DNA from: Chloroflexota bacterium
Lineage (GTDB): Bacteria; Chloroflexota; Dormibacteria; CF-121
Direction: 5' to 3'
Assembly (NCBI GenBank): GCA_034666565.1
Contig: JAXDLN010000012.1
Location: 14,040 to 78,039 of the forward strand
DNA: 64,000 nucleotides
In this document: piece by piece, positions 4,880 through 53,464 of the stretch
How the letters are laid out: each line of letters opens with the position of its first letter
Position numbering within the stretch: position 1 is the first letter of the stretch
Translations under genes and position numbers: made by a program
Notes under the pieces: generated by a model
Told to the model about the DNA's origin: nothing
What the model saw: only the letters and a program-made list of their open reading frames with translations
The model's database searches: none

Positions 4880-4912
4880 CCCTCCCCCTCTGGGGGGAGG
4901 GTAGGGTGGGGG
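4880..4912 (+). repeat. Hairpin + G-tract repeat, copy 1 (intergenic)
   Basis: CCCTCCCCC-TCTG-GGGGGAGGG-TAGGGTGGGGG. Confidence 0.9.
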
Positions 4913-4915
4913 CCG

Positions 4916-6508
4916 TTATCTGACGAGGTAGGCGTAGCCGCGGAACTGCGGCGCGTAGGCCAGGTTGTATTGAACCAACATGCCGGCGAGGTTCGGAACG
5001 TAGCCGCCGGTGCAGCCGGGCGTGCCCGGCGTGCCGTTCGGGACGCTCGGATTGGTCGTCGCCTCGTTCGCGAGGTTCCCACCCTGCAAGATGACGTGTG
5101 GTGCGATGAACTCGCCCTCGACGGCATACTGGCTGGTGCTGGTGCTGACTGCCTGGATGGTCGCGGTGGCGTTGGCCTCGTCGATGAACACGGTGCCCCA
5201 GACCTGGAAGGGATAATTGCCGTAGCTGGACTTGGTGCCATCGACCGTCTCCGACCAGGGCGTGGCGTTGGTGTCCGTCTGGCGGACGAAGAAGGCGATG
5301 TGGTGGGTGACGCCGGACACGGTGTGGTTCGGGGCGACGAAGAACACGCTTGGCGACTTGCTGCCAGAGGTCGAGGCGGAAAAGCCGCCGCCGTTGTCGA
5401 AGATGAATTCGACGCCATCGGTAACGCCGTCGGCCGCCACCGGGAGGTTGCTGTAGGTACCCAGCGTCGTCAGTGGCTGCCCATTCACGGTGTTCGACAC
5501 GATGCCACCGGTGATGTTGAGGCTCGCGCCGCTTTTGAAGAGATAGATGCCGTTGTCGAAGATGTACTTATCGCTCGCCGTTCCGCCCGGAAGCGGGATG
5601 TTCAAGTTGCTGGTAAAGACACCAGGGTGGATGTAGAACGTCGGGCTGCTACCGGTCCAGGTGCCGATCGTGGCCGTGTTATACGTCGCCTCGTAGTTTG
5701 GCGCCGGCTCCTGCACCGGGACCGGGCTCACGGTCTGATACCAGTACGTCCGGACCGCGTGCGTATCCGATGCCGACAGGTGTTCGAAGACCCCGTTGAT
5801 GTTCAACCAGCCGGGGTGCGGGTTGGGGGCGTGCCACTTCGAGTTGGAGACGACGCGGGCCTGGGGGCTCGGGTTGCAAATGTCGGATCCGTTGTTCCCG
5901 TTGTCGATCTGGGCATAGCCGTTCTGGTCGAATTCCACGGTGTTACCGCCGCCGGGACCCGCTTGGAACCCGAAGACGGCGTACTGGTTGTTGAAGAAGC
6001 CGCCGTGCGCATAGGCATCCGCGACGACCGCCGAGTTGGTGAACCCGATCACCGCGGCAAAGGTCAGCGGCACGTTATAAGTAACGCGGACGTGGATCTC
6101 GTTGTTGTTGCTCCGGCTCGGCGTCCACACGGTCACTGACACCGGGAGACCGCCGGCCGCCGCCTCGGTAATGTAGCCGGTCCCGTTCGGCGTGTAGTTC
6201 GGAGAGGGGGGTGCGCAGGTATTGCCGTCCACCGGCTGGCCCCCGATACCGTTGATGGCGAACAGTGCCGCCTGGCAGTTGGCCTTGGTAATCATGGCGG
6301 TGGTCGTGGCTGCGTTGCCGTCCGGTGGCAGGAGTTCCTGCGCGCCGGCGAGCGCGCCGGCGTCCGCAGCGTTTTGCACGTCGCGACGCTGGAAATAGAG
6401 GCGTCCGGCGTCCAGGCCCAGCGCGATGATGCCGAAGAGGGCGGTCGCGGACAGGGCGACGATGACGAGGCTCTGCGCGCGCTTGCGACGGCGGCTCAGT
6501 TCTTTCAT
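4916..6508 (-). CDS. TadG-like Flp pilus assembly pseudopilin
   Basis: RAQSLVIVALS...ALGLDAGRLY...QNAADAGALAGA N-terminal Tad signature; large Gly/Thr/Asn-rich extracellular domain. Confidence 0.85.
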   Translation of the reverse strand: MKELSRRRKRAQSLVIVALSATALFGIIALGLDAGRLYFQRRDVQNAADAGALAGAQELLPPDGNAATTTAMITKANCQAALFAINGIGGQPVDGNTCAPPSPNYTPNGTGYITEAAAGGLPVSVTVWTPSRSNNNEIHVRVTYNVPLTFAAVIGFTNSAVVADAYAHGGFFNNQYAVFGFQAGPGGGNTVEFDQNGYAQIDNGNNGSDICNPSPQARVVSNSKWHAPNPHPGWLNINGVFEHLSASDTHAVRTYWYQTVSPVPVQEPAPNYEATYNTATIGTWTGSSPTFYIHPGVFTSNLNIPLPGGTASDKYIFDNGIYLFKSGASLNITGGIVSNTVNGQPLTTLGTYSNLPVAADGVTDGVEFIFDNGGGFSASTSGSKSPSVFFVAPNHTVSGVTHHIAFFVRQTDTNATPWSETVDGTKSSYGNYPFQVWGTVFIDEANATATIQAVSTSTSQYAVEGEFIAPHVILQGGNLANEATTNPSVPNGTPGTPGCTGGYVPNLAGMLVQYNLAYAPQFRGYAYLVR

Positions 6509-51200: not shown

Positions 51201-52646
51201 GCGTCGACCCGCCTGTACTTTGAGCCGCTCGACCTGGAAGGCGTGCGGAATGTCCTGCGGCGCGACCCAGTACTCGGCGTGATGGTCCAGTTCGGCGGCC
51301 AGACCGGGCTCAACCTGGCGGACGCTCTCGCCGCCGGCGGGGTCCGGATCCTCGGCTCGACGGTCGAGACCATCGACCTGGCCGAAGACCGGCGCCGCTG
51401 CGAGGCACTGCTGCGCGACGCCGGCATCCCGCAGTCACCCGGTGGTTCGGCAACCAACGTGGAGGAGGCGCTCGGCATCGCGGTCCGGGTTGGCTACCCG
51501 GTGCTGGTCCGACCTTCCTATGTCCTGGGTGGCCGCGGCATGGAAATCGTCCACTCGCCCGCGGACCTGCGACGTTATGTCGAGGCGGCCATCGCGTTCG
51601 GGCTTCGTGGCCCGATCCTCGTCGACAAGTACCTGCTCGGTCGTGAGCTCGACGTCGACGCCGTCTGCGATGCGCACACGGTGCTCATCCCCGGCATCCT
51701 CGAGCACATCGAACGCGCCGGCATCCATTCGGGTGACTCGTTCGCCGTCTATCCCCCGATCACGCTCACGCCCGCGGAGACTGAGCGGGTGGCCGAAGCC
51801 ACGACCACCATCGCCCACCTGTTCAAGGCCGTGGGACTGATCAACATCCAGTTCGTCATCCAGGACGGCGTTCCCTACGTGCTCGAGGTGAACCCCAGGG
51901 CAAGCCGGACGGTGCCCTTCCTCAGCAAGGTGACGGGCGTGCCGATGGTCACGCTCTCCACCCACGCATCGCTTGGCCGTCCCCTTTCCGACTTCGGATT
52001 CGGCAGCGGCTTGCAGCCCAGCCGCGCCCTTTACGCGGTGAAGGCACCCGTGTTTTCCATGGCAAAGCTGCCGGCGGTCGATGCCGTGCTTGGGCCCGAG
52101 ATGAAGTCAACCGGTGAGGCGATGGGCATCGCGAAAGACTTGCCGACGGCGCAGTACAAAGCCTTCCTTTCGACCATGCAGGAGCTGCCGCCCGATGGCG
52201 CCGCGCTGTGCTCGATCGCCGACGCCGACAAGGAGGAGGCGCTGCCGATCCTGCGCGCGATTCATGCGCTGGGCCTGCGGCTGTTTGCGACCGCCGGCAC
52301 GGCTGCGCTACTCCGCGACTCGGCGATCCCGGCCACCACGGTGCAGAAACTCCGGGACGGTCATCCAAACGTCGTGGACGTGATCCACTCCGGCCAGGTG
52401 CACCTGGTGGTCAACACTGTCTCGGCGTCGGCGCCGATCGCCGATAATGGCGCCGGCGTTCCGCTCCGGGATGGCTATGAGATCCGTCGCGCCTCGGTCG
52501 AGCGCCGCATTCCCTGCCTCACTTCGCTGGATACCGCGAGGGCGTTGGTCCAGGCGCTGAGCGCGTCGCGTCGTGAGCATCGCTCGAGCGTTGCCACGCT
52601 CGGCGAGTACGTGGGCGCGCCCACCCCCGAGGTCGTGCGCGCGTGA
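48270..52646 (+). CDS. carB: Fused carbamoyl-phosphate synthase small + large subunit (CarA-CarB)
   Basis: CarA motifs GYQE..DPSY, SNGPGDP, GICLGHQ and QFHPE continue without a stop into CarB motifs [33 protein letters not shown] and the MGS domain. Confidence 0.94.
48801..48835 (+). repeat. Hairpin + G-tract repeat, copy 8 (in frame in the CarA inter-domain linker)
   Basis: CCCTCCCCC-GCTAGC-GGGGGAGGG-CAGGGTGGTGG, encodes [12 protein letters not shown]. Confidence 0.92.
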
Positions 52647-53464
52647 GCGTCGCGGTCGCGCCGGCCGTCGTCGCCGAGCGCTCGGTGGCCATGGCCGGGG
52701 CGGTTGAGCTCGTGATTTTCCACCCGCCCTCCGCCGTTGCGGTTGCTCCCGGGCAGTTTTTTCAGCTGGCGGTCAGCGCCCCGCACACGCTCCTCCGCCG
52801 CCCCTACAGCGCCGCCTGGTCTGATCCGGCAAGCGGCCGGATCGGGTTCATCTTCAACGTGGTCGGGGCGGGAAGTGCATGGCTTGCTGCTCTTGGCGAG
52901 GGTGACGAGCTGGATTTGCTCGGCCCTCTCGGACGCGGCTTCGACATCGACGGCCAGCGACCAGCCATCTGTATTGCCGGCGGCCTCGGTATCGCCGTGT
53001 TTCCCGGCGTCGTCCACGCGCTGATCGCGCGGGGGCGCTCCGTGATGGTGCTGCAGGGTGCCCGCACCGCGGCGCAGCTGCTACCAGCGTCTCGATTCGC
53101 GGGTGCTGACGTTCAGGTCTCAACCGACGACGGCAGCGCCGGTCATTCCGGCTCGGTCGTTGACCTGCTGACTCAATATTTCGCTCCCCCTCTCGGGGAG
53201 GGCAGGCTGGGGGCCGTTGACATCCTCACCTGCGGCCCGACTCCGATGCTCACCGCATTAATCGACGCTGCCCGTCGCCACGAGATTCCACTTTCGTCCA
53301 TCCAGGTGGCGCTCGAAACCCCGATGGGTTGCGGGGTCGGAACCTGCCTGGGCTGCGCCGCCCCGCGCCTTGCTGGCGGATACTTGCTCACCTGCCAGGA
53401 GGGGCCGTGCGTGCGCGCCGATCGGATCGACTGGGGCCTGATGACGGATGGCTTCCATGGCTGA
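52643..53464 (+). CDS. pyrK: Dihydroorotate dehydrogenase electron transfer subunit
   Basis: [39 protein letters not shown]...C.EGP. Confidence 0.92.
53182..53213 (+). repeat. Hairpin + G-tract repeat, copy 9 (in frame in pyrK)
   Basis: CGCTCCCCC-TCT-CGGGGAGGG-CAGGCTGGGGG, encodes [10 protein letters not shown]. Confidence 0.85.

Follow-up and report, generated by a model that had tools for sequence, protein, structure and literature searches.

A three-block repeat resembling BoxC/PIT/TMECO elements resides in frame within genes of a Dormibacterota soil genus

Genomes of an uncultured soil genus of Dormibacterota carry a repeat of 33 or 36 nt that is probably the Dormibacterota version of the BoxC/PIT/TMECO intrastrand-triplex family, with the history and mode of survival proposed below. 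It has the architecture of that family, occurs in many copies per genome, lies in frame within genes and is present at some orthologous sites and absent from others, and no RAYT gene was found with it in 30 genus genomes. BoxC/PIT/TMECO repeats have been on record since the 1990s and are few in E. coli; we know of no explanation so far for their function or their means of spread. This kind of repeat is thus already known. New are its lineage, its sequence variant and its behaviour in coding regions, the novelty being large-scale in-frame colonisation of genes.

Nine copies of one repeat in a 64-kb window

The window, i.e., the whole 64-kb stretch of DNA that was analysed, belongs to a Candidatus Dormiibacterota MAG from soil (3.64 Mb; hereafter G000). 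An earlier note had placed nine copies of a palindromic repeat in it, and all nine were found there (Table 1; copy 4 starts at 14101 if its lead is left out). The strict pattern CCCTCCCCC-N3-8-GGGGGAGGG gave 5 matches in the window against a mean of 0.00 in 100 dinucleotide-preserving shuffles, chance expecting none, and allowing up to 2 substitutions per arm recovered 9/9 copies. The extra match of this relaxed scan, at 33256, lacks a tail and is unrelated to the repeat. The G-rich tail was on the + strand in 9/9 copies, and the two loop subtypes differed by 3 nt as described, TCT giving units of 33 nt and GCNNGC units of 36 nt.

Table 1. Copies of the repeat in the window and the genes around them
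Feature	Position	Strand	First loop	Description
Copy 1	4880..4913	+	TCT	One additional G in purine arm; intergenic, flanked by minus-strand genes 4916-6508 and 4295-4837
Copy 2	9242..9274	+	TCT	Inside M23-peptidase-domain protein 7694-9592 (632 aa), residues ~516-528
Copy 3	10668..10703	+	GCTTGC	Degenerate purine arm; intergenic, flanked by minus-strand genes 10705-11388 and 9589-10647
Copy 4	14098..14133	+	TCT	Includes 3-nt A/T-rich lead; antisense in last codons of ybaK
YbaK-type tRNA-editing gene	14086-14613	minus		Copy 4 supplies 12-residue tail
Copy 5	15932..15964	+	TTT	T variant of second loop; spacer between IMPDH-family gene (14695-15900) and guaA
Copy 6	26865..26900	+	GCTCGC	Codes final 12-13 residues of PurB (25566-26906), PSPARGGGQGGGT
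Copy 7	46818..46853	+	GCTGGC	Decayed left arm; inside PyrR (46509-47135), residues 104-115, PLPAGGGGPGGG
Copy 8	48801..48836	+	GCTAGC	Inside fused CarA-CarB ORF (48270-52646, 1458 aa), residues ~178-189
Copy 9	53182..53214	+	TCT	Four mismatches; inside PyrK (52643-53464), residues 180-192

Four copies lie inside CDSs (M23 protein, PyrR, fused CarAB and PyrK), two form C-terminal tails (YbaK and PurB), one precedes guaA and the other two are intergenic. The earlier count of six copies in CDSs and two in spacers therefore held, whereas the proposed overlap with the guaA start did not: a GTG at 15975 gives a protein with a GATase domain from residue 2, so that copy 5, ending at 15964, lies 10 nt upstream of the gene. 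All three reported reading frames were seen, PSP(A/S)xGGGQGGG in the M23 protein, PurB, CarA and PyrR, PPLGEGR(L/V)G in PyrK and upstream of guaA, and the antisense frame in YbaK.

Pfam domains locate the copies within their host proteins. Copy 7 is spanned by the Pribosyltran domain of PyrR (residues 25-185), at a place where the alignment of solved PyrR chains has gaps, and copy 9 by the NAD_binding_1 domain of PyrK (residues 111-205; Fe-S domain at 225-262). In CarA-CarB, copy 8 falls in the linker that leads from the small-chain N domain (CPSase_sm_chain, 7-132) to the GATase domain (199-377). The tRNA_edit domain of YbaK covers residues 34-150 of 175, and the ADSL_C domain of PurB ends at residue 426 of 446; the purC ATG at 26903, where SAICAR synthetase begins, overlaps the purB stop. 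The M23 domain was found only at residues 74-160, so that homology supports this host protein just on the N-terminal side of copy 2.

The repeat has the three-block architecture of BoxC/PIT/TMECO elements

In each unit, 3 or 6 loop nucleotides join the pyrimidine arm CCCTCCCCC to the complementary purine arm GGGGGAGGG, and a second loop of 2-3 nt joins the latter to a third block, GGGTGGGGG, its mirror image. The first loop has 3 nt in 79/145 and 6 nt in 40/145 copies; the second is mostly CA or TA, at times TCA or TCG. The earlier description as a plain palindrome plus tail thus gives way to a triplex-motif layout: what was taken for a tail is the third, mirrored block of the three-block BoxC/PIT/TMECO intrastrand-triplex architecture.

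In the excerpted text of Holder 2015 (PMC4666352), TMECO, described as BoxC/PIT, has the pattern CCCTCNCCC, N3-6, GGGNGAGGG, N3, GGGNGAGGG. The Dormibacterota repeat has the CCCTCNCCC arm, the 3-6-nt loop and the complementary GGGNGAGGG arm, N being C/G in 53/64; the three positions that make up one triad are C/G/G in 53/64 pattern-matching G000 copies, against T/A/A in E. coli. A literal third GGGNGAGGG arm after a 3-nt loop was not found, GGGTGGGGG having G at the A of the pattern. Read backwards, GGGTGGGGG places its G residues opposite those of GGGGGAGGG and its T opposite the one A there, so that each position can form one of the permitted triads, G.G-C, A.A-T or T.A-T (PMC4666352, same excerpts). 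To judge by its sequence, the single-stranded repeat could fold as a hairpin with a purine-motif third strand (G.G-C, T.A-T). The three-way covariation of the triad comprises just two states, C/G/G and T/A/A, which limits the claim.

A T/A/A copy from the carA site of genome G045 (L021:3870-3907), the one copy used as query, had matches in 4591/5426 E. coli genomes (80-90% identity, query coverage of at least 80%). One of these matches lies in the cpsG-wcaJ spacer.

The available passages of PMC4666352 count 3610 TMECO copies in 262 proteobacterial genomes and report triplex formation in vitro; in E. coli K-12 they give the copies as always intergenic, arranged in inverted pairs and free of strand bias. 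The Dormibacterota repeat shares with this family the three blocks, the 9-nt CCCTCNCCC arm and a total of ~35 nt, a copy number of tens to more than 100 with large differences among close relatives, deleted and mutated copies, and the lack of transposon linkage. It differs in its C/G/G triad and mostly 2-nt second loop (T/A/A and 3 nt in BoxC/PIT/TMECO) and in its host phylum, Chloroflexota/Dormibacterota instead of Proteobacteria. Moreover, about half of its copies overlap CDSs, one third of the total being internal, close pairs are direct, and orientation comes in runs.

The right half of the unit, G5-A-G3-CA-G3-T-G5, is also a G-quadruplex motif, having four G runs of 3 or more and loops within 1-7 nt. 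ViennaRNA, with RNA parameters, predicted -19.8 and -23.1 kcal/mol for the hairpin, -29.7 and -32.5 kcal/mol with G4 allowed, and -27.7 kcal/mol for the G4 of the 20-mer right half. The four G-tracts could instead form a G-quadruplex, and G4 could be the relevant fold, as its predicted energy beats that of the hairpin (-29.7 vs -19.8 kcal/mol).

Copies are numerous in the genus and frequent within genes

The whole-genome scan that the earlier note had called for was run with the 20-nt right half as query. In G000 it gave 105, 123 and 151 matches at up to 1, 2 and 3 mismatches, against 0, 0 and 7 for the motif read backwards, and a left arm was recognisable in 145/151 copies. These are copies of one DNA repeat family, not chance matches. 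All 24 genomes sampled from the genus had between 7 and 106 matches, and among 401 Chloroflexota sampled, at least 31 matches were found in this genus only; every genome compared is a MAG.

By our own gene caller, which uses a crude codon model, 77/151 copies lie wholly within predicted CDSs: 50 copies are internal, 19 C-terminal and 8 N-terminal; 13 more lie over a gene end and 61 are intergenic. The 105 best copies showed the same proportions. In PyrR, CarAB and PyrK, Pfam domains span the copy or flank it on both sides; this also holds for 14 of the 20 other host proteins tested, the remaining 6 lacking such support on both sides. The residence of copies in frame within CDSs was borne out. 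The common units measure 33 or 36 nt, and none of the six frames of the consensus contains a stop codon, so that tolerant loops, linkers and gene ends can take up a copy without loss of the reading frame.

We count two biases as selection on the peptide. The 77 CDS copies use the six frames unequally (29/24/13/7/3/1; chi-square 51.2, p = 8e-10), frames with Trp and Cys being almost unused, and intergenic copies make up 61/151 although non-coding DNA is 11.2% (p = 3e-20). Copies inside and outside CDSs have diverged to the same extent (1.76 vs 1.70 mismatches, p = 0.38), which, like the scarcity of compensated arm substitutions given below, points to neutral decay in place.

Orthologous sites are filled in some species and empty in others

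The proposed alignment of orthologues was carried out, and the expected empty sites exist in sister species at PyrR, ybaK and several more sites, with net gaps of 33 or 36 nt where measured and exact ends at ybaK. Such net differences at orthologous sites identify the repeats as DNA insertions, not ordinary linkers. Copy 4 is an exact 36-nt insertion without target duplication relative to three genomes (G001, G002 and G020). Among 16 PyrR orthologues, 6 are filled and 10 empty (net 33 nt, 11 aa). At the carA site, 17 aligned orthologues read by eye comprised 10 with a copy and 7 without, a distribution for which the tree demands at least 4 changes; the 10 copies include several loop types, one tandem pair and 3 visibly decayed copies. 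In genus relatives, the pyrK loop either holds peptides derived from the element, of several variants, or is empty, and PyrK of other phyla is without the inserted segment.

Copies 1, 2, 3 and 5 were compared likewise. Copy 2 (6 loci aligned) is intact in G000 and G001, partially deleted in G002, replaced by a 30-nt gap in G012 and absent from G008 and G006. For copy 1, the sole other locus aligned, the orthologous spacer of G002 (L112), has no copy. Copy 3 was recognisable in G000 only among 10 aligned loci, that of G045 (L132) having a dissimilar C/G-rich stretch; contigs of two other soil samples (X3 and X4) bridge it, and an X3 contig bridges copy 4. For copy 5 (3 loci aligned), G002 has a copy and G042 a different, degenerate arrangement. 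At carA, pyrK and a further site (C33:35076), different species carry different loop subtypes at one site. Plain insertion followed by decay leaves this unexplained, which counts against our best explanation.

A dedicated mobilising enzyme is unlikely

As the earlier note had proposed, a dedicated nuclease or transposase encoded elsewhere (RAYT/TnpA-REP, IS200/IS605 or other) might mobilise the repeat in trans, which would make it a non-autonomous element akin to REPs or MITEs. Like REP/REPIN sequences, it is a G/C-rich hairpin of 20-40 bp in high copy with species-specific expansion. Single-strand Y1 (IS200/IS605) transposition inserts without target duplication, and the ybaK insertion, with its sharp 3' boundary, is of that sort. 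Further points in favour are local clusters, 12 pairs lying within 500 bp where 3.3 are expected, and a clustered orientation: along G000 contigs we counted 29 switches among 120 adjacent pairs (60.2 expected; 0/20,000 permutations as low), with runs of ~45-180 kb.

The enzyme itself did not appear. The Y1/RAYT transposase domain PF01797 was found in 0/30 genus genomes (MAGs 66-95% complete, 7 at 90% or more), compared with 6/14 reference genomes in a control search, and neither the TnpB-type domain PF07282 nor any enriched gene family adjoining the copies, paralogous or other, was found in G000. A multi-copy DUF222-HNH family is not supported as mobiliser, being also present in families with just 0-2 motif matches. 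Neither a GTAG nor a CGTC tag, as defined in the abstract of PMC3733652, occurs in the printed copy sequences or the consensus. Unlike the inverted pairs of REPINs, the close pairs are direct (12/12), and half of the copies lie in CDSs. A MITE would have terminal inverted repeats and a target-site duplication, but the unit is asymmetric, with an A/T-rich lead and a G-rich third block, and the ybaK insertion is exactly 36 nt and duplicates no flank. Mobilisation in trans is therefore unlikely, although an enzyme of a family not yet known might escape a search of MAGs.

Two other small repeats invite comparison. Rickettsia palindromic elements are ~105-146 bp long (table in PMC3184786; elements of Ogata 2000, as cited there). 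The present repeat likewise sits palindromic and in frame within coding genes and adds peptide segments, but its unit of 33-36 nt has a third mirror-repeat block, an unrelated sequence and another lineage, the in-frame behaviour alone being common to both. BRE, as described in part of Hot et al. 2011 (PMC3110155), are ~90 bp long with partial forms of 40-60 bp and occur in Comamonadaceae; like our repeat they are small, G/C-rich, strain-variable and at times tandem or wholly in coding sequence, and by description, as opposed to sequence, they differ in length. A near-identical copy of our repeat occurs in Variovorax, a member of the Comamonadaceae.

Selected function and ordinary linkers

A functional cis-element kept by selection could organise the chromosome as a KOPS- or Chi-like polar motif, serve as a signal in replication or recombination, or tune translation from within the mRNA (as a G4 or Shine-Dalgarno-like element). 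Such a function would account for the strongly clustered orientation and for the conservation of the architecture between phyla, where the triad has changed in a matched way. The right half holds two GGGNAGGG words, which we liken to the KOPS consensus, and copies lie shortly upstream of the guaA and purC start codons. Orientation, however, showed no link with four-fold-site GC skew (rho -0.18, p = 0.44) and matched neither gene-strand bias, nor GGGNAGGG words outside copies, nor any skewed 7-mer. CDS copies are sense in 43 and antisense in 34 cases, presence and absence differ among sister species at most sites examined, and decay proceeds without compensation, arm substitutions in 81/145 copies being compensated in only 2 of the 81. 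For PIT elements, the excerpted PMC4666352 mentions earlier work that found no promoter or terminator activity. We regard such a function as quite improbable. That the repeats are ordinary low-complexity Gly/Pro linkers, alike by convergence or codon bias, is rejected with near certainty: the peptides are rich in Gly/Pro/Ser and sit in loops and linkers, but the same 33/36-nt DNA occurs in 3 sense and 3 antisense frames and in spacers, the reversed control gave 0 matches at up to 2 mismatches, and orthologues without the segment show the net 33- or 36-nt gaps.

Discussion

We favour membership in the BoxC/PIT/TMECO family as the probable explanation. The family would have multiplied within the genus to tens to ~150 copies per genome, individual sites gaining and losing copies during speciation. 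Copies in tolerant loops, linkers and gene ends would persist as Gly/Pro/Ser-rich inserts of 11-12 residues, and an inserted copy would then decay as neutral DNA. The triplex-capable fold may be what the spreading process recognises, and spread may depend on replication or repair rather than on a classical transposase.

A bolder version, which we hold only as a doubtful possibility, is that the repeat is selfish DNA defined by its structure, the 33/36-nt unit folding as a triplex or G4 and copying itself transposase-free via a replication- or repair-coupled process, for example by element-bearing single strands annealing at forks or by fresh copies converting decayed residents. If true, it would account for the direct local clusters and the ~45-180-kb orientation runs, for sites filled anew by another loop subtype, and for the matched three-way change that keeps the triad across phyla. 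As a by-product, surface loops would be rewritten in a large share of core enzymes genus-wide.

Some 30 genomes of this uncultured soil genus, with tens to more than 100 copies each and many filled and empty sites, make the movement of the motif, its targets and the role of the triplex fold testable by comparative genomics, and in conserved enzymes alignment fixes the repeat boundaries to the codon. For the annotation of Dormibacterota MAGs, Gly/Pro inserts, C-terminal tails and apparent start-codon extensions of this kind are real insertions, not assembly errors. With about a third of copies inside coding sequences, among them those of PyrR, PyrK, CarA, an Lhr helicase, an ABC ATPase and an SDR, a repeat of 33-36 nt can supply new peptide loops on a large scale.

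Anatomy and copy number of the repeat

A strict hairpin pattern matched five times in the window against 0.00 times in 100 shuffles. Allowing up to two substitutions per arm recovered all nine copies reported by the earlier note, all in one orientation and with the G-rich extension always on the + strand. The window corresponds to C12:14040-78039 of the genome under study (G000; 3.64 Mb, 121 contigs, 65% G+C). Across this genome, the 20-nt right half of the element gave 105, 123 and 151 matches at up to 1, 2 and 3 mismatches, against 0, 0 and 7 for the same motif read backwards. 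A left arm was recognisable in 145 of the 151 copies.

The unit opens with a short lead rich in A/T (72% of copies have T at position -1, and ∼40% have A at -4/-5), followed by the pyrimidine arm CCCTCCCCC, a loop, the purine arm GGGGGAGGG, a second loop of CA, TA or TCA, and a third block, GGGTGGGGG, then C. Since the first loop measures 3 nt in 79/145 copies (mostly TCT) and 6 nt in 40/145 (GCNNGC, which extends the stem), this layout gives a core length of 33 or 36 nt. The consensus is stop-free in all six frames, as are 97 of the 145 individual copies; one of the six is closed wherever the second loop has its T variant. Perfect 9-bp stems were found in 66/145 copies. Arm substitutions were present in 81 and compensated in only 2 of these. 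Copies within CDSs are as diverged as those outside, and the PyrR copy differs between G000 and its relative G002 at ∼7 of 36 positions (counted on the alignment), a divergence similar to that of the locus overall (87% identity). The copies show no sign of function in place. The G-run of the first copy (window 4892-4895) varies by one base among contigs of three soil metagenome runs (X1, X3 and X4).

At Rfam gathering scores no copy in the window was matched, the sole matches there being an FMN riboswitch and a tRNA gene.

Locations of repeat copies and associated features (window positions unless a contig, locus or replicon is named; C-numbers are contigs of G000)
Feature	Location	Strand	Remark
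Repeat copy	4880	+	intergenic
Repeat copy	9242	+	within 632-aa M23-domain protein, well 3' of its sole Pfam domain
Repeat copy	10668	+	intergenic
Repeat copy	14101	+	antisense to final codons of YbaK-type editing protein
Repeat copy	15932	+	spacer, 10 nt ahead of guaA GTG at 15975
Repeat copy	26865	+	PurB C-terminal residues, downstream of ADSL_C domain; adjoins purC start
Repeat copy	46818	+	within PRTase domain of PyrR
Repeat copy	48801	+	fused CarA-CarB ORF (apparent fusion), linker between N domain and GATase domain
Repeat copy	53182	+	within NAD-binding domain of PyrK
FMN riboswitch	36588-36719	+	81.8 bits; ahead of gene starting at 36770
carA + carB	48270-52646	+	single continuous 1458-aa ORF
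tRNA gene	57890-57961	-	
733-aa ORF	C67:26887-29088	-	repeat copy at residues 406-418
Direct doublet in CDS	C48:86415/86454		
Direct doublet in CDS	C120:151454/151517		
DUF222+HNH gene	C119:307631-308869		
DUF222+HNH gene	C119:31188-32450		
DUF222+HNH gene	C109:481-1659		
DUF222+HNH gene	C5:47742-49031		
DUF222+HNH gene	C87:201457-202284		
DUF222+HNH gene	C91:36240-37115		
Bac_DnaA domain	C120:95533-96015		full domain, 248 bits
Bac_DnaA domain	C71:390-872		full domain, 243 bits
Extended pyrR orthologue	L024:1171-2796 (G011)		542 aa
Variovorax copy	L206:20001-20040		NZ_CP070344.1
Long palindrome	L217:7457-7502		IMG/VR
Long palindrome	L218:4426-4471		IMG/VR

The repeat lies in frame within genes

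Genes were called with a simple codon model of our own (3291 genes, 88.8% coding in G000) and domains were assigned with Pfam; all genomes compared are MAGs. In-frame colonisation of coding sequences, as proposed by the earlier note, was borne out by copies inside PyrR, CarAB, PyrK and other genes, and the reading frames it assigned were correct. Its placements also stood, except for the copy at 15932, said to overlap the guaA start and in fact located upstream of it. Genome-wide, 61 of the 151 copies are intergenic, 50 are internal to a CDS, 19 sit no more than 12 residues from a C-terminus, 8 no more than 20 residues from a predicted start, and the other 13 overlap the end of a gene; these proportions were unchanged among the 105 best copies. 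Although intergenic DNA makes up 11.2% of G000, 40% of the copies fall there (p = 3e-20), which implies either a preference for spacers or the loss of most coding insertions.

In another 20 genes with an internal copy, Pfam support flanked the copy on both sides or spanned it in 14 cases, was confined to one side in 5 and was missing from both sides in 1. These hosts include an ABC ATPase, ApbE, an SDR, an Lhr helicase, an M20 peptidase, an acyl-CoA ligase, shikimate dehydrogenase, a glycogen-debranching enzyme and an MFS transporter. The 77 CDS copies (43 sense, 34 antisense) use the six frames unevenly (29/24/13/7/3/1; chi-square 51.2, p = 8e-10), with 24 in the antisense frame APTLPSPRGGG, 7 in SPHPALPQRGRE, 3 in QPPPYPPPEGEG and 1 in the Trp-rich frame. 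Such a bias is consistent with selection acting on the encoded peptide, although insertion may instead favour certain phases.

Two long ORFs carrying copies deserve description. The carA-carB ORF encodes, in order, the small-chain N domain, GATase and the full large-chain set through MGS; syntenic loci align over it, and it looks like a CarA-CarB fusion rather than two genes. The 733-aa ORF on C67 joins a luciferase-like monooxygenase (residues 83-377) to a UbiA prenyltransferase (454-689), and may represent two genes bridged by a stop-free repeat or hide an internal start.

Filled and empty orthologous sites

Alignments of syntenic loci drew on as many as 29 further genus genomes, one of which (G018, unpublished) is counted in tallies only. 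Empty orthologous sites were found. The PyrR site carries the copy in 6 of 16 orthologues and is empty in the other 10; a secondary deletion of 12 nt affects one of the filled six. Filled and empty forms differ by a net 33 nt or 11 residues, and it is the nearest relatives of the window that have the site filled. In the YbaK gene the window is longer by exactly 36 nt than G001, G002 and G020, with no duplication of the flank. A copy in an Lhr-type helicase (C33:26815) is present in G000 only and missing from four loci (G001, G002, G009, G012), and one in an SDR (C33:21864) is shared by G000 and G001 and absent from three others. PyrK of other phyla lacks the entire segment. Judged from these alignments, the inserts in genes are insertions of DNA and not linkers. 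Several CDS sites acquired the A/T-rich lead together with the element and gave up a few bases of the target, so that their length changed by 33 nt net; it follows that the element has a ragged 5' edge and a sharp 3' edge.

The PyrR insert would sit in a loop, a placement taken solely from gapped alignment to solved PyrR chains; an AlphaFold2 model from the 16-row alignment reached a mean pLDDT of only 40.7. In one genome (G011) the pyrR orthologue is extended and diverges past the PRPP-motif region, pointing to a frameshift or a fusion in this MAG.

The carA linker is occupied in 10 of 17 orthologues and empty in 7. These counts were made by eye, since the tree script automatically labelled two visibly decayed copies (L002 and L012) as empty. 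Among the copies at this site are four or more loop types, a tandem pair and three members that have visibly decayed, and at least four changes are required on a carB-based tree. The PyrK loop and C33:35076 were repeatedly occupied in the same way. Such decay and renewal at one site points to re-insertion beside or into resident copies, or to conversion by fresh copies.

Direct clustering and runs of one orientation

G000 has 12 pairs of copies spaced by no more than 500 bp, where 3.3 would be expected, and every one of the 12 is direct. Tandem direct doublets within CDSs were found in another genome, G012, at the carA site (L004) and at the site orthologous to C33:35076 (L155), as well as in G000 on C48 and C120; two of the doublet copies, separated by 5 nt, lie in an MFS transporter, within its central loop.

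Orientation is also organised over longer distances. Only 29 switches occur among 120 adjacent pairs in G000, against ∼60 expected, and none of 20,000 permutations gave a number as low. Runs of one orientation span ∼45-180 kb: contigs C12, C33, C76 and C120 are entirely + (10/10 on both C12 and C33), and C24, C80, C81 and C87 entirely - (8/8 on C87). On C119 the orientation flips near 125 kb while gene-strand bias stays constant. The runs did not fit GC skew, whether of whole contigs or in 20-kb windows, gene-strand-corrected skew at four-fold sites, the gene-strand majority, GGGNAGGG words outside the copies or any 7-mer (best z = 3.5). The dnaA-like genes on C120 and C71 were of no help in accounting for them. 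That G000 holds two full Bac_DnaA loci could reflect a paralogue or a second strain (estimated contamination 2.7%).

Relation to the BoxC/PIT/TMECO motif

The third block of the element is its purine arm reversed, so that G faces G and T faces the single A. In sequence terms, purine-motif intrastrand triplexes bear this signature. Exactly this three-block layout is described by Holder et al. 2015 for TMECO, formerly BoxC or PIT (CCCTCNCCC, N3-6, GGGNGAGGG, N3, GGGNGAGGG; PMC4666352). They list 3610 copies in 262 proteobacterial genomes, with up to 143 in one Enterobacter, and state that TMECO is absent from transposons, phages and plasmids. They also describe the triplex as stable in vitro, with no in vivo evidence, and link the motif to local sequence variability by an unknown mechanism. 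The positions of one triad read C/G/G in 53 of the 64 pattern-matching G000 copies and T/A/A in E. coli; as both states obey the triad rules given there, the three blocks would have changed in concert. One genus copy, at the carA site of G045, is of the T/A/A type; at 80-90% identity it has matches in 4591 of the 5426 complete E. coli genomes searched, for example in the cpsG-wcaJ spacer. By its architecture and by the direct similarity of this one genus copy, we consider that the element belongs with BoxC/PIT/TMECO. Compared with TMECO as there described, it misses the literal pattern at one covarying position and does not keep the intergenic habit.

Energy modelling with RNA parameters predicts that the G strand folds into a G-quadruplex (-29.7 kcal/mol) in preference to the hairpin (-19.8 kcal/mol), and that the C strand can adopt the hairpin only. 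Literature searches on the three 9-mers returned nothing for bacteria, and those on Dormibacterota and repeats nothing relevant.

Occurrence in other genomes

All 24 sampled genomes of the genus contain the repeat, with 7-106 matches each. Of 397 sampled Chloroflexota genomes from outside the genus, 31 had 1-9 matches; the four genus genomes in that sample all had at least 31. A plasmid search detected a near-identical copy, including the T-rich lead, on a replicon of the betaproteobacterium Variovorax sp. PDNC026; it is the only exact match in the 1.24-Mb record and has a degenerate inverted neighbour ∼20 nt 3'. This copy may be related to BRE, a ∼90-bp element of Comamonadaceae (PMC3110155). 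Matches in Thermus oshimai, Paracoccus and Sphingomonas from the same search were weak, the Thermus one being partial and at a gene junction.

Related copies were present at five loci of viral contigs (IMG/VR). In two of these, L217 and L218, the third block is matched by a complementary partner on the left, so that the whole makes a perfect long palindrome with a ∼22-bp stem. G000 contains no copy of this full form, and the Dormibacterota unit looks like the long palindrome minus its outer left arm.

Search for a mobiliser

The earlier note had invoked a nuclease or transposase acting in trans. This received no support: the Y1 transposase (RAYT) was found in 0/30 genus genomes versus 6/14 control genomes by the same search, no TnpB-type domain occurs in G000, and no gene family adjoining the copies is enriched (the largest has 7 of 71 members near a copy, versus a background of 242/3291 genes). 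Near-identical paralogues, a sign of IS elements, amounted to 14 pairs at ≥80% identity. The ten paralogue proteins scanned were ordinary enzymes apart from a six-member DUF222+HNH family, whose proteins of ∼410-430 aa carry an HNH endonuclease motif (best pair 88% identical). This family is multi-copy in 23/24 genus genomes and present in other families of the class, and one member adjoins a copy by coordinates (C119:31162). It was rejected as a specific mobiliser since it also occurs in families with 0-2 motif matches (17 copies in G035, 12 in G038 and 7 in G033). It probably constitutes a separate selfish gene family. Any model of the spread of the repeat would have to account for the direct clusters, the coherent orientation along contigs and the repeated occupation of certain sites.

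Contig ends of the MAG are not enriched in copies (5 within 600 bp versus 6.0 expected). The runs holding this DNA are soil metagenomes, and contigs of four were examined. In X1, the likely source run, short contigs stop at the 9242 and 15932 copies and the joints connect copies; contigs of X3 and X4 span the 10668 and 14101 copies. The contigs of the four metagenomes, which cannot reveal rare variants, contained no empty allele.

Taken together, the observation of a short palindromic repeat residing in frame within genes is confirmed, and its earlier interpretation was partly right. New for an element of this kind are the phylum, the C/G/G triad state, the direct clustering and the unexplained orientation runs, and the fact that about one third to one half of its copies are translated inside housekeeping genes.
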